Shown: positions 2,251-5,953, counted from the first letter of the stretch. The stretch is 7,184 nt of DNA from a virus (IMGVR_UViG_2681813320_000018:1-7184), one strand, 5' to 3'. Notes: generated by a model not told the origin, from the sequence alone. Translations and numbers: made by a program.

Positions 2251-2554
2251 AATTAAAGAAATACCAGTAGTACGTGATGAATATGGCTGCTGGACGCATC
2301 CTGAATATGAAAAATTCTGTGACGGTCGGGAATATATTTCAACGGAAGAGTTTAACGCCTGGATGGAGGAAAATAATCTTCAATACGTCCTCTGCTTCAG
2401 AGATGAAGGATGTGCTGACCTTGATGCGTGTGATGCTGATATTTCTGCATGGGAACCGGAACGACCAGAGGGCAATGGATGGTTTATTGGTTCAATACAT
2501 GACACCGAAGATGGCCCGGTTTGTGTATGGCTGAGAAATAAGGCCGAAGCATAA
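2243..2554 (+). CDS. hypothetical acidic small prophage protein
   Basis: 103-aa ORF. ATG 2243 overlaps the previous stop (ATGAATGA at 2243-2250). Acidic, Cys-containing, no recognised motif. Last gene before the composition drops. Confidence 0.55.
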   Translation: MNEIKEIPVVRDEYGCWTHPEYEKFCDGREYISTEEFNAWMEENNLQYVLCFRDEGCADLDACDADISAWEPERPEGNGWFIGSIHDTEDGPVCVWLRNKAEA

Positions 2555-2585
2555 AGGCTATAAACCGACTAACAACTAAATACTG

Positions 2586-2620
2586 AGGATTTAAATCAGA
2601 AACGATTTTTATTAAATCCT
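2586..2620. repeat. 9-bp perfect inverted repeat AGGATTTAA / TTAAATCCT with 17-bp spacer
   Basis: Read directly: aggatttaa at 2586-2594 and ttaaatcct at 2612-2620. Lies in the intergenic gap at the left edge of the AT-rich block, about 65 bp upstream of the Q-like gene start. Confidence 0.5.
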
Positions 2621-2686
2621 TAACCGGAGGGATTCCTGCACCCTCAAATCATCAGGAGGCCGCCAGAAAGGGCGGTGGAGATAATA

Positions 2687-3208
2687 ATGGGAATAACTAA
2701 AGAACGATTGTTGGAAATAGCAAACCTTAGTGATTGGGCATTAAGTGATGAGAGAATTGTTTCTCCTCATGCTTATGAGTCAGTTACAAGTATAGAAATA
2801 ACAACAATGGCTAGAATGCTGCTTGGTTATTTCAAAATAGAAAATAAAAAACAGATGGATAGTAATGTTGATATATGTGAGATTTTAGACGATTGGGGGG
2901 CTTGGGTTGTGGCTGGTAATAGTTCTATTGATTGGCAGGAAATAGCTGATAAATATAAAAATGTTGTTCCTCATGGTAAAAAATCACGTCGTCAGTGCAG
3001 CAATGATGAAGGGCGAATTATTGACATTAGTATCCTTAGGTTAGAAAGATATAAGCAACAAGAATATGAGTTAATTGTTGCTCATTTCGTGATTGGTTTA
3101 TCTCTTCGTGCTATTGCAAAGCAACAAGGATGTTCAGATGGAACAATTCGTAAAAGATTGCAAAAAGCCTTAGGTTTTTTGACTGGATATATAGCAATTA
3201 CCAGTTAA
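2687..3208 (+). CDS. Q-like antitermination protein homolog (QuuD/Phage_antitermQ-like C-terminal region) with ~60-aa N-terminal extension
   Basis: Track ORF 2675-3208. Preferred start is ATG 2687, with GGAG at 2677-2680 and a 6-nt spacer. Motifs DDWGAW, SRRQCSNDEG and HFVIGLSLRAIAKQQGCSDGTIRKRLQKALG match what I recall of E. coli cryptic-prophage Q proteins of the QuuD type (from memory). The C-terminal segment also resembles a sigma-70 region 4 / LuxR-type HTH. AT-rich like the adjacent operon. Confidence 0.55.
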   Translation: MGITKERLLEIANLSDWALSDERIVSPHAYESVTSIEITTMARMLLGYFKIENKKQMDSNVDICEILDDWGAWVVAGNSSIDWQEIADKYKNVVPHGKKSRRQCSNDEGRIIDISILRLERYKQQEYELIVAHFVIGLSLRAIAKQQGCSDGTIRKRLQKALGFLTGYIAITS

Positions 3209-3846
3209 GAGTCAGCGGTTTTTTTACCAGTGTAATGGTATAAGGATACTCCCATGTGTCTTACATGATATGGAAGCGCTGTTGCTGGATGCTTTGTGAT
3301 ACTCTTAAAGCGGAGGGGAGAGCCTTCCGCTTCAATTTCTGCGTCCGAAACGGTCGTAGAGAAAAATTCTTTCCATTCATTGAATTTTACTGCTGATTTG
3401 TCAGACTTTATATAAATTAGAATTCCTCCATGATCGTCACGTGACGTACCCGTGCCGTAACGTTCGGTTAGCTGAATCCAGCCATTATGAATAGATTTGG
3501 GGCCTCTCCATAATTTTGCTTCACCGATCCATTCGAATTTTCCGAATTGATGTTTAACTAATAAATCAACGTGACCGCCATGTTGAGTATCATGTTCAAC
3601 ATCATAAAACCTACCTTTCAGGAAATTTTTGATCGACGCTGTTAGCTCGTCCTCTCCCCACTTAGCATCTTGATAGAAGTGTTTGTCATTTTCTAAATTC
3701 TGAATAGCGTCGTCTAAATCTTCATAGAGTTGCTTTACAAAAATATTTTTGTCTGCAGCTAATTTTCTTTGAACCATTCCCCTAAATTCAGGATCCATTC
3801 TAATTAATGATTGAAGGTCTGCAGTACAGATGTTTACATCACTCAT
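3205..3846 (-). CDS. hypothetical protein, putative PD-(D/E)xK-type nuclease (third gene of minus-strand operon)
   Basis: Track ORF 3205-3909. Preferred start is ATG at 3846-3844, with GGAGAG 5 nt upstream on the - strand, overlapping the upstream gene's stop by 8 nt (ATGAGTGA). Motif YDVEHDTQHGGHVDLLVKHQFGKFEWIGEAK gives E83, D94, E109-x-K111, consistent with a restriction-endonuclease-like core. The 3' part of the gene (about 3205-3500) is nearer 52% GC while the 5' part is about 35%. Confidence 0.55.
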   Translation of the reverse strand: MSDVNICTADLQSLIRMDPEFRGMVQRKLAADKNIFVKQLYEDLDDAIQNLENDKHFYQDAKWGEDELTASIKNFLKGRFYDVEHDTQHGGHVDLLVKHQFGKFEWIGEAKLWRGPKSIHNGWIQLTERYGTGTSRDDHGGILIYIKSDKSAVKFNEWKEFFSTTVSDAEIEAEGSPLRFKSITKHPATALPYHVRHMGVSLYHYTGKKTADS

Positions 3847-4267
3847 GCAGACTCTCCAAAAGACTCGAAGGAGTAAAGTATGGATAAAGATACTGGCTAA
3901 AATTATCAACCAATTCGCCAGTTTCTGGATGGTAAAAACTTCCTGTGTCTAAAGCATAGGAAATAAGATCATCTTCAACTGGTATTGGTTCTTCCGTTAA
4001 ATTATCAATGTATTGAAAATGCATATCCAATAGATGTGCTTTATAGCTAGATAAATAATCAGTTGCTTTTATTAGCAGGATATAGTCATCTTTCGTATCA
4101 GTTAGATAGGTTAAACCATTGATAAGGGTTTTGTATGTAAAGTGATTGATATTTTTAGCATCTTTACTAACCAGAAAAAGAAAAAGATCACGACACACAC
4201 TGCGAACAGGATCATTAAAATCCTGCTCTATTTGCGTGATAATGTCGTGATATATACTCTTTTTCAT
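3839..4267 (-). CDS. hypothetical protein (142 aa), middle gene of minus-strand operon
   Basis: ATG at 4267-4265 overlaps the upstream gene's TGA (ATGA overlap). Its stop overlaps the next start. AT-rich coding with an acidic C-terminal half. No recognised motif. Confidence 0.55.
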   Translation of the reverse strand: MKKSIYHDIITQIEQDFNDPVRSVCRDLFLFLVSKDAKNINHFTYKTLINGLTYLTDTKDDYILLIKATDYLSSYKAHLLDMHFQYIDNLTEEPIPVEDDLISYALDTGSFYHPETGELVDNFSQYLYPYFTPSSLLESLHE

Positions 4268-5355
4268 TTATGGCCTGATGATCTCGCTCTTCTTTTCTCT
4301 TCACAGGACTTAACAGAATCCAATATTTTTTCAACAATAAATATAATCGAATCAATGTTGTTACAGTTCTTCGCAATTGCTTCATGCAACCTAATTCTAG
4401 GATTATCAAGCATTGTCCTTTTTCCTGGTAATATTAACTCTACTGATAAAATATGTGAAGAACTTTGTGGTAAATCCCAAATTTTTCCCAACTTAAACTT
4501 TGTCAATATTGGGCTTGCGGACTCTCCACTATGATGGTAAACATCTTGACGCAAACACTTTTGACTTGGTTTGAGTTTTAAAGAACTTGTATTGCCATCT
4601 GAGGTGATAAAAGATACATGAGAAATTCTGCCATCTACTTTTTCGTAAAGATCTTGTATTGAACCAAATAATTCAAGAGGATTGTTTAAAATAACGCCAG
4701 CTTCTTTTTTTATAAATTTAGCCACAAGGTATTGTTGAGGCTGTGATTCACTTCTTGGAAGGATAGATAAATCAATCGTAAGAATTAATATTTTTTCTGC
4801 AGGCATTAGCATGATGGTATTAAAGCATTGCGTGACTTGGCGTGTTTTGCATTTTATTTCTCCACCATTAGCACGTAATTCCATACCCGCATCGCTAAGA
4901 TGTGTTGGGTCAAGCTCTATCACTTCAGTGTAATACGCTTTGGATAAAAAAACAGCAGTGTCAATTTGTTTATCACGAATGATATCTTGACGTAGTTCAG
5001 CAAAATGCAGCTCAGTATCAGCAACTAACAGCTCCTCTCTGGATAAAGGAGTTGGGTATTTTTCTGAGAAGGGGCTATTGTCCTTTTTCTGATTTGTGAA
5101 AATTGTTTGTAATTTTGCTACGTCTTCATCGGTGATTCTATAAATAGAAAGTAATCGATTCCCGCTAAAAATTAAACCTTTCCAGAAATCGTCGATTCTG
5201 TCTTTTAGGTCGGGATTATGCTGAACTACACTATTTACACGTTCAATAAAAAGGGGTAATCCTTGGGCCGTTACACCCAGTGATGAACCAAGAAGCTTAC
5301 GGGTGTTGCGCCAGCCAAAGCGTGAATTGATGTTTTTTACTGTTTGCTCAAGCAT
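4264..5355 (-). CDS. hypothetical protein (363 aa), first gene of minus-strand operon
   Basis: Track ORF 4264-5361 begins at a GTG. Preferred start is ATG at 5355-5353, preceded on the - strand by AAGGAAG (5-nt spacer). Long uninterrupted AT-rich ORF. No Walker A/P-loop found on manual scan and no family recognised. Confidence 0.65.
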   Translation of the reverse strand: MLEQTVKNINSRFGWRNTRKLLGSSLGVTAQGLPLFIERVNSVVQHNPDLKDRIDDFWKGLIFSGNRLLSIYRITDEDVAKLQTIFTNQKKDNSPFSEKYPTPLSREELLVADTELHFAELRQDIIRDKQIDTAVFLSKAYYTEVIELDPTHLSDAGMELRANGGEIKCKTRQVTQCFNTIMLMPAEKILILTIDLSILPRSESQPQQYLVAKFIKKEAGVILNNPLELFGSIQDLYEKVDGRISHVSFITSDGNTSSLKLKPSQKCLRQDVYHHSGESASPILTKFKLGKIWDLPQSSSHILSVELILPGKRTMLDNPRIRLHEAIAKNCNNIDSIIFIVEKILDSVKSCEEKRRARSSGHK

Positions 5356-5400
5356 TAACACTTCCTTAATTTTCCCTTAACAATTTAGGGTGCTAAACTT

Positions 5401-5440
5401 TTTTGCGCAGTTTACATAAAAAAATAGTGCGTACGCAAAA
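5401..5440. promoter_or_regulatory. operator-like dyad: 10-bp perfect palindrome TGCGTACGCA inside an imperfect 9-bp inverted repeat (TTTTGCGCA ... TACGCAAAA)
   Basis: Read directly: tgcgtacgca at 5428-5437 is self-complementary; arms at 5401-5409 and 5432-5440 match 8 of 9. Located 45-85 bp upstream of the minus-strand operon start, in the AT-rich divergent intergenic region. Function is inferred. Confidence 0.3.
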
Positions 5441-5496
5441 ACTATCTAACATGATGAGCTTTAACCGGGAAATTTGTATATGTTGTGAGCATAAAG

Positions 5497-5525
5497 TTGG
5501 CTGAGAAATCTAAAACGGGTAGAAT
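5497..5525 (+). promoter_or_regulatory. candidate sigma-70 promoter for the hok-family transcript (-35 TTGGCT, 17-bp spacer, -10 TAGAAT)
   Basis: TTGGCT at 5497-5502 and TAGAAT at 5520-5525 with a 17-bp spacer. Predicted start near 5532 gives a leader of about 170 nt before the hok ATG, in line with the long structured leaders of hok-family mRNAs. Confidence 0.3.
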
Positions 5526-5701
5526 GACTGCGGGTGCTTGAGGCTATCTGTCTCAGGCATGAACACCAAAAGGCAGATAGAGAAAAGCCCCAGTTAACAT
5601 TACGCGTCCGGCAAGACGCTTAACATTAATCTGAGGCCATATCTATGCTCTACACACGTAGGTTAGCCTCTTACGTGCCGAAAGGCAAGGAGAAGCAGGC
5701 T

Positions 5702-5857
5702 ATGAAGCAGCAAAAGGCGATGTTAATCGCCCTGATCGTCATCTGTTTAACCGTCATAGTGACGGCACTGGTAACGAGGAAAGACCTCTGCGAGGTACGA
5801 ATCCGAACCGGCCAGACGGAGGTCGCTGTCTTCACAGCTTACGAACCTGAGGAGTAA
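5702..5857 (+). CDS. hokD: Hok/Gef-family type I toxin (HokD/RelF-like, 51 aa)
   Basis: MKQQKAMLIALIVICLTVIVTALVTRKDLCEVRIRTGQTEVAVFTAYEPEE carries the Hok-family signature (hydrophobic TM helix, LVTRKDLCE, TGQTEVAVFTAYE) and matches my recollection of E. coli HokD (unverified). GGAG at 5690-5693 precedes ATG 5702. The track ORF starts at an in-frame upstream ATG 5645, judged not the toxin start. Confidence 0.85.
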   Translation: MKQQKAMLIALIVICLTVIVTALVTRKDLCEVRIRTGQTEVAVFTAYEPEE

Positions 5858-5927
5858 GAGACCTGGCGGGGGAGAAATCCCTCGCCACCTCTGATGTGTC
5901 AGGCATCCTCAACGCACCCGCACTTAA

Positions 5928-5953
5928 CCCGCTTCGGCGGGTTTTGTTTTTTT
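5928..5953 (+). terminator. rho-independent terminator (CCCGC-UUCG-GCGGG stem-loop plus U-tract)
   Basis: Perfect 5-bp GC stem at 5928-5932 and 5937-5941 with a UUCG tetraloop, followed by TTTTGTTTTTTT at 5942-5953. Lies 70 nt downstream of the hok stop. Confidence 0.7.

Follow-up and report, generated by a model that had tools for sequence, protein, structure and literature searches.

A 7,184-nucleotide (nt) stretch of viral DNA (IMGVR_UViG_2681813320_000018:1-7184), referred to here as the window, contains a rightward gene for a Q-like antiterminator and a leftward gene for a nuclease-like protein that converge and end on the same four bases. Just inside the leftward gene, the string TGGTATAAG resembles an extended -10 promoter element on the + strand. 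A preliminary description of the window proposed that this string is a promoter which, especially if modified by the Q-like protein in the manner of the lambda PR' unit, drives antisense transcription across the leftward operon and forms a built-in switch. The question raised by the locus is whether positions 3200-3250 contain such a switch or have another origin. We find that the locus is a cargo cassette of a prophage, located beside a Q-type gene in a slot of variable content. Comparisons among related prophages place positions 3200-3250 at what appears to be the left junction of a horizontally exchanged cargo module, which reaches from about 3014/3164 to 5527. We consider this cargo-module reading, taken as a whole, likely to be right. 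It is carried by the identities of the genes, the overlap between them, the mosaic structure of the region, the recurrence of the layout in other phages, and the chance level and coding origin of the promoter-like string. A Q-dependent antisense promoter is extremely unlikely.

The window is a Rac-like lambdoid prophage of Escherichia coli, and its positions 2600-5700 are 99.9% identical to a prophage of E. coli O127:H6 E2348/69. The content of guanine plus cytosine (GC) is 32-40% across positions ~2550-5500 and 50-57% in the flanks. We collected 38 IMG/VR loci encoding the Q-like protein through an alignment-based search; a contig scan with the single Q-like protein gave 120 pattern matches, of which 0 were confirmed. 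In 36 of the 36 IMG/VR loci that reach hok, minus-strand genes occupy the space that separates hok from the Q-like stop. These genes belong to six unrelated cassette types, and the stop-to-stop spacing is a 4-nt overlap in the window type and 5, 9, 19, 19, and 30 nt in the others. Homology between cargo types stops inside the Q-like gene, at about residue 110, and resumes at position 5528, the start of the sok/hok locus. Because of this break and resumption, positions 3200-3250 are best placed at the left junction of an exchangeable module. Upstream of the boundary, the Q-like gene is common to all cargo types and near-invariant, and the C-terminal ~60 amino acids (aa) of its product form a cargo-type-specific allele. 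Searches against other E. coli agree with a boundary in this region, with megablast homology ending at 3096 and blastn homology reaching 3164. The recombinant STEC308 combines a foreign Q-like N-terminus with the C-terminus and the cassette of this window. In evolutionary terms, the Q-like gene may be part of the accessory region.

Five other leftward cassettes occupy the slot (L029, L030, L034, L035, and L038). The cargo in them comprises the PADLOC candidate PDC-M53, a 493-aa protein with an NA37-like protein, a 410-aa protein with an NA37-like protein, a 159-aa protein with a DUF6731 protein, and a set of 182-, 94-, and 241-aa proteins. PDC-M53 is the one candidate system among the slot residents, and the rest, including the NA37-like and DUF6731 proteins, are uncharacterized. 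The slot looks like a defense or cargo hotspot, and nothing specific to this hotspot was found in the published literature.

The rightward gene had been called Q-like, and this identity is borne out. Its product matches Pfam PF06530 with an expect value (E) of 9.4e-32 and 109.9 bits (cut-off 26) over profile positions 3-112 of 118, and its residues 62-171 are ~60% identical to the late Q of Stx1a/Stx2a phages. The match to the structures of Q from phage 21 (Q21; PDB 6JNX and 6P18) is weak (E 6e-4). The C-terminus contains a sigma-region-4-like helix-turn-helix (HTH; Sigma70_r4_2), and the N-terminus carries a conserved extra extension of ~60 aa. Q21 and the late Q proteins of Stx1a/Stx2a phages and SfII belong to the same Pfam family, and in Stx1a/Stx2a phages and SfII a convergent cargo cassette directly follows the Q gene, as it does in the window. 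The gene in the window differs from these Q genes in its N-terminal extension and in its position within the early operon. The Q-like gene shares the low GC content of the cargo (32-40%), unlike the neighboring early genes (50-57%).

The same gene belongs to the early region and is distinct from the late-gene Q of the prophage. In E2348/69, hokD, DUF968, and rusA come before a separate lambda-type Q, which is located 4.5 kb downstream and has tRNA genes behind it. A Q21-family antiterminator gene would be expected to close the early region, ahead of the late promoter and lysis genes; here cargo, hok, DUF968, rusA, and a second, lambda-type Q come next. Several prophages (L037, L049, L050, and L051) carry a frameshifted or truncated copy of the early Q-like gene, which suggests that the gene is dispensable in cryptic prophages. 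With the lambda late switch (Q, PR', qut, and tR') the window shares a rightward Q-family gene in a lambdoid prophage and a promoter-like motif just downstream of the Q stop. It differs in having no intergenic DNA, no -35 element, no -7T, and no conserved leader-terminator unit, and its Q-like gene is an early-region gene that precedes hok, DUF968, and rusA, whereas the late position is held by the lambda-type Q seen in E2348/69. The window has no PR'-qut-tR' late unit in non-coding DNA beside its Q-like gene.

We examined the convergent junction itself. The TTAA at 3205-3208 consists of the interlocked TAA stops of the two genes: the Q-like open reading frame (2675/2687-3208) ends with TAA at 3206-3208, and the minus-strand frame ends with TAA read at 3207-3205. 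The RefSeq annotation of E2348/69 shows the identical 4-nt overlap, there between an 'antiterminator Q family protein' and a hypothetical protein. The shared stop noticed in the preliminary description is therefore confirmed, and its statement that neither transcript can end without entering the other gene also holds. There are 0 intergenic bases between the two genes, and therefore any terminator of either gene must sit within the other. We note that this is a routine, ordinary junction. Four-nucleotide convergent overlaps on TTAA, CTAA, CTAG, and TTAG are a known peak (a jump) in the overlap-length distribution of prokaryotes, and E. coli has 58 convergent overlaps, with intrinsic terminators in ~20% of the genes involved (PMC2174442). 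The overlap at 3205-3208 falls exactly into this class, and nothing distinguishes it. The interlock would be an ordinary outcome of 3'-end drift in tightly packed convergent genes.

Neither the terminator scan nor RNA folds predict an intrinsic terminator on either strand of the junction in this cargo type. A run of seven T residues at 3219-3225 was rejected as a terminator, as it has no preceding GC stem, and the junction folds marginally better than shuffled sequences (z of -2.2 and -1.3). The sole hairpin candidate for stopping cassette transcripts, and a weak one, is an AT-rich palindrome inside the Q-like gene (positions 3161-3181), which is unused in the minimum free energy fold of the minus strand and unflagged by the terminator scan. 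The missing terminator could be a functional feature in itself if the overlap had been selected for mutual interference, with the cassette silencing a leaky Q-like gene in the lysogen and the Q-like gene silencing the cassette at induction. Convergent abutment in all cargo types would fit such selection, as would the lack of a junction terminator on either strand in this type and the precedent of tha/ith in phage 80alpha (PMC11087260). However, the spacing ranges between -4 and +30 nt, and cargo type D (L034) has a bidirectional intrinsic-terminator hairpin exactly at the Q-like/cargo junction (L034 8519-8551). The lack of termination is therefore not conserved in the slot, and a 4-nt overlap is in any case the default for tightly packed convergent genes. 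We regard selection for mutual interference as quite unlikely.

The promoter-like string begins 28 nt past the Q-like stop. Its proposed fit to the extended -10 consensus TGnTATAAT stands in part: TG is present at 3236-3237, and the hexamer TATAAG at 3239-3244 provides -12T and -11A, but -7 is G instead of T and there is no -35 element, the hexamer at 17-nt spacing being CGGTTT. A standard two-hexamer promoter scan does not list the site 3236-3244. If the string were a working PR'-like promoter, Q-modified polymerase starting there would run antisense across the cassette and constitute the built-in switch. Such a model draws on the TG and TATAA so close to a Q-family stop, on a + strand hairpin that lies ~60-85 nt further on (3309-3331) and ends in a T-rich tail, an arrangement loosely reminiscent of a PR'-tR' unit, and on the sequence TGAAATAAT at the homologous site beside the late Q of a related prophage (L005). 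However, the 3309-3331 hairpin is not kept in L005 when the two are compared by eye, and a constitutive PR'-like promoter would be expected to oppose expression of the cassette in lysogens.

Strings of this kind occur at chance frequency. In the whole window, TGNTATAAT with at most one mismatch has 4 matches against 7.2 expected, and TGNTATAA followed by any base except C has 1 match against 0.72 expected and at least one match in 108 of 200 shuffles. Thirteen other sites keep TG, -12T, -11A, and -7T (the form TGNTANNNT), against 14.8 expected, and 3236-3244 is not among them. On the minus strand, 3246-3235 reads TCC TTA TAC CAT (Ser-Leu-Tyr-His), of which the motif is the reverse complement, and these residues lie within the conserved C-terminal block VRHM.V(S/C)L(Y/F)H of the nuclease-like protein. 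The homologous site is the above TGAAATAAT in L005, an E. coli homologue with 62% identity, TGATATAAA in Yersinia (L009), which has no Q gene nearby, and TGCCACAAT in Shewanella (L012). At -7 lies the third (wobble) base of the Ser/Cys codon, which is G, T, and A in three homologues. In these alignments, variation is indeed seen at the sole promoter position that appears free to vary. The Shewanella homologue has lost the motif, as, by eye, has that of the Stx1a-converting phage Stx1_499. Protein conservation and AT-rich codon choice together account for it.

The motif is not a regular companion of Q genes. An extended -10-like string lies within 130 nt of the Q stop in two of the six early-Q cargo types and in two of the four late-Q cases, and no such motif lies within 130 nt of the stop in the other four cargo types or in Stx1_499 and Stx2a_1447. 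Judged from the sequence, TGGTATAAG is a chance or coding by-product and not a dedicated or Q-dependent promoter. The claim of a Q-modified PR'-like promoter at 3236-3244 is unsupported on these grounds, and we hold the switch built on it to be highly improbable. A different possibility is that the string acts as a weak, spurious intragenic promoter of AT-rich acquired DNA, silenced by H-NS and cleared by Rho, with no link to Q. The region has 36-39% GC against 50-57% in the flanks, -10-like strings are frequent (as the 13 TGNTANNNT sites illustrate), and pervasive intragenic promoters are an established property of AT-rich acquired DNA. Nevertheless, the missing -7T and the absent -35 predict very low activity, and we consider this possibility unlikely.

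The layout of the window recurs beside genuine late Q genes. The Q gene of SfII is separated by 3 nt from a convergent cassette of two genes, beyond which 285 nt of non-coding DNA precede a holin gene, and in Stx2a_1447 a two-gene cassette lies 21 nt after the late Q. In a widespread E. coli prophage (L005-L008), the cassette family of the window overlaps the late Q by 25 nt and precedes the holin gene. Stx1_499 carries a cassette for 350-, 130-, and 221-aa proteins 30 nt after Q, between Q and stx1AB, and this cassette is a distant homologue of that in the window (hhalign probability of 100% with the nuclease and of 95.7% with the large protein). We note that the Stx1_499 cassette could affect Q-dependent toxin expression.

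Five late-Q phages share a conserved unit of ~100 nt (...GCTAACGCGTACGCAAAAATTATTGTATCGTGTTAAGAGTGGTTACTTCGCCAC..., with a strong hairpin and a T-run), which is located just past the 5' end of the cargo and upstream of the holin or stx genes. The unit is not known to Rfam. It is probably the PR'-leader-tR' of this Q subfamily, and we infer that cargo in these phages lies between Q and PR'. With up to three mismatches allowed, the unit was not found in the window, nor was it found in any of the 38 early-Q-like loci. These observations argue further against a PR' unit at 3236-3244, as the leader-terminator unit of related late Q genes sits beyond the cargo and is absent here.

The leftward cassette contains three genes. 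The product of the last one has a predicted restriction-endonuclease-like fold with an invariant D...E-x-K and is, by this prediction, a nuclease of the PD-(D/E)xK superfamily. RefSeq starts this gene at 3798, giving 197 aa, and ATG 3846 (MSDVNIC...) gives 213 aa. ATG 3846 is probably the true start, since the alignments of 23 homologues of 199-218 aa begin there, and the RefSeq start would then be 16 codons short; starting at ATG 3846 also gives an 8-nt overlap with the upstream gene, as in L005. The middle gene overlaps its two neighbors by 8 and 4 nt, and a gene of 140-147 aa is kept at the middle position in L005, L009, and L012. For the first gene, the idea that its 363-aa product is a diverged NA37 nucleoid-associated protein was rejected, with hhalign probabilities of 0.2% and 1.1% against the first genes of two other cargo types.

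None of the three cassette proteins had a significant match in Pfam, PADLOC, or NCBIfam. Against PADLOC-DB 2.0, the nuclease-like protein matched PDC-S54 alone, with E 0.002 over 60 residues, and the other two proteins matched none. Full-text searches for the RefSeq protein accessions, including in the DefensePredictor supplements, returned no mention of them. The predicted fold and the D...E-x-K of the nuclease-like protein are like those of PD-(D/E)xK effectors (McrC, HamA of Hachiman, and NucC) and of type II enzymes of the BamHI/BglII group, and the slot also holds the PADLOC candidate PDC-M53. In contrast to those effectors, the protein here belongs to no listed defense family at the sequence level and has no methyltransferase partner; its partners are an RdgC-fold protein and the 142-aa protein. 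The cassette is also found in a Yersinia prophage and a Shewanella island, both without a Q gene. It is most likely an accessory or anti-phage cassette that is expressed in the lysogen from its own promoter, although we infer both the defense role and the promoter. The promoter presumably lies in the cargo-specific region 5356-5527, where no two-hexamer match was found on the minus strand.

These results lead to the following explanation of transcription at the locus. The leftward operon for the RdgC-fold protein, the 142-aa protein, and the PD-(D/E)xK nuclease would be transcribed from its own promoter in the lysogen. Because there is no intrinsic terminator, its transcripts would continue into the Q-like gene. 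On the minus strand, RNA antisense to this gene has a C/G of 1.95 and is untranslated, and it is therefore an expected Rho substrate; Rho would end the transcripts there. On the + strand, RNA across the cassette has no open reading frame of more than 59 aa and is therefore also expected to be Rho-sensitive. Both expectations follow from what is generally known about Rho. A + strand reading frame of 46 aa at 3256-3396, downstream of the motif, was dismissed as unsupported and antisense to a conserved gene. At induction, early rightward transcription would cross the slot, because the + strand genes distal to hok (DUF968, rusA, and the true late Q) lie beyond it, and such crossing would damp the cassette during lytic growth. 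Thus, of the proposed antisense switch, the conflict with the operon remains plausible, but its source would be early transcription from upstream; the evidence does not support a promoter at 3236, and the conflict does not require one.

Prophages typically carry accessory loci antisense to their lytic genes (PMC7067206), and antisense control in a 'noncontiguous operon' has been demonstrated for the tha/ith defense pair of phage 80alpha (PMC11087260). Like the window, prophage moron loci and tha/ith have an AT-rich, independently oriented cassette that faces lytic transcription in a variable slot (PMC7067206, PMC11087260), and this likeness makes reciprocal lysogenic/lytic interference plausible. 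In the window, interference is suggested by the geometry only, and, unlike in tha/ith, no small antisense inhibitor gene was identified.

Crossing of the slot raises the possibility that the Q-like protein itself is an early processive antiterminator, which would allow polymerase from the early rightward promoter to traverse the ~2.5-kb untranslated antisense slot and the hok terminator on the way to rusA and the late Q. The Q-like gene is always immediately upstream of the slot, and the + strand RNA is predicted to be Rho-sensitive, as described above. Polymerase would also meet intrinsic terminators, since some cargo types have the bidirectional junction terminator (L034) and another terminator follows hok. 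In addition, the C-terminal ~60 aa co-vary with the cargo type, the N-terminus being near-invariant, and the cargo-linked allele of the C-terminal HTH might reflect module-specific recognition. However, linkage at a recombination boundary would explain this co-variation equally well, and the gene is AT-rich like the cargo. Neither a loading site nor a promoter for the Q-like protein was found, and the gene is frameshifted in several loci (L037, L049, and L050). We judge the early antiterminator to be decidedly unlikely. The more specific form of this idea is very unlikely: the Q-like protein would be dedicated to the slot, overcoming Rho, the junction terminator, and the hok terminator and shutting the cassette off at induction, with the HTH allele marking module recognition.

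Several points weigh against the cargo-module reading. The cassette matches no established defense family in PADLOC-DB 2.0. The TG of an extended -10 element can partly offset a weak hexamer, and active intragenic promoters are frequent in AT-rich foreign DNA in E. coli. The corresponding site in L005, TGAAATAAT, has both -11A and -7T and lies exactly at the stop of a genuine late Q. Finally, what points to read-through from an early promoter is the gene order only, and hok and the genes downstream might have promoters of their own.

The features discussed are listed in Table 1 together with their coordinates. On the right flank of the slot, sok is recognized by Rfam RF01794 with 117 bits against a gathering score of 59, and hokD by RefSeq. 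The hairpin after hokD (AACCCGC...GCGGGTT) resembles the terminator of the putative PR' units in late-Q phages. It is overlapped by a weak isrK-like Rfam match at 5866-5947 (27 bits, gathering score 50); we rejected the isrK-like reading, as the match is below the gathering score and the sequence is most simply the hok terminator region. Upstream of the slot, the window differs from E2348/69 in its ydaV/DnaC-like and DUF1627 genes, and an 84-aa reading frame at 1996-2250 is intact in the window and a pseudogene with an internal stop in E2348/69 (L001 5397-5651). The window therefore comes from a related, not identical, prophage. In Stx1_499, the region downstream of stx1B (L056 4402-4676) matches Rfam STnc100 with 191 bits, and its other strand holds an AgvB/AsxR-type anti-small RNA.

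Table 1. Coordinates of features in the window and, where a locus handle is given, in related phages
Feature	Position	Strand	Basis or remark
Q21-family antiterminator homologue ('early' Q-like gene, 173 aa)	2687..3208	+	Pfam PF06530; PHROG 79 'Q-like'
Mosaic boundary	3014..3164		Within Q-like gene; protein alignments, megablast to 3096, blastn to 3164
AT-rich palindrome CAAAAAGCCT-A-AGGTTTTTTG	3161..3181		Within Q-like gene; inverted repeat I3
Last cassette gene, PD-(D/E)xK nuclease-like, 213 aa from ATG 3846	3205..3846	-	Predicted fold, conserved motif
Extended -10-like string TGGTATAAG	3236..3244	+	Within minus-strand nuclease-like coding sequence
Hairpin GCGGAGGG/CCTTCCGC then TTCAATTTCT	3309..3331	+	Terminator-like; inside nuclease gene
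Middle cassette gene, 142 aa, no recognizable family	3839..4267	-	PHROG 11490
First cassette gene, 363 aa, no sequence family	4264..5355	-	Predicted fold nearest RdgC
Cargo-specific non-coding region upstream of cassette	5356..5527	-	Cross-type homology resumes only at 5528
hok/sok type I toxin-antitoxin locus	5532..5857	+	sok region 5532-5707, hokD 5702-5857; right flank
Intrinsic-terminator-like hairpin and T-run after hokD	5926..5943	+	Terminator scan
Stx1_499 cassette	L056 415-2522 (LC567825.1 13614-15721)	Convergent to late Q	hhalign homology
~100-nt unit	L005 4310-4400 (-), L056 2575-2660, L052 2745-2830		Conserved
~100-nt unit	L055 4470-4560, L053 2630-2720		Conserved

Taken for its biology, the overlap between the two genes matters little, and the promoter reading is probably wrong. 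Q genes of the Q21-type subfamily, early or late, mark a recurrent slot in which unrelated leftward cassettes are swapped, and in some Stx1a phages this cargo hotspot also lies between Q and stx1. One uncharacterized cassette family, consisting of an RdgC-fold protein, a small protein, and a predicted PD-(D/E)xK nuclease, recurs in E. coli, Yersinia, Shewanella, and Stx1a-converting phages. This family is a reasonable candidate for a new anti-phage system, with a possible influence on Q-dependent toxin expression. If the Q-like protein were a dedicated antiterminator of the slot, it would represent a second, early tier of Q-type control that is tied to a hotspot of defense cargo.

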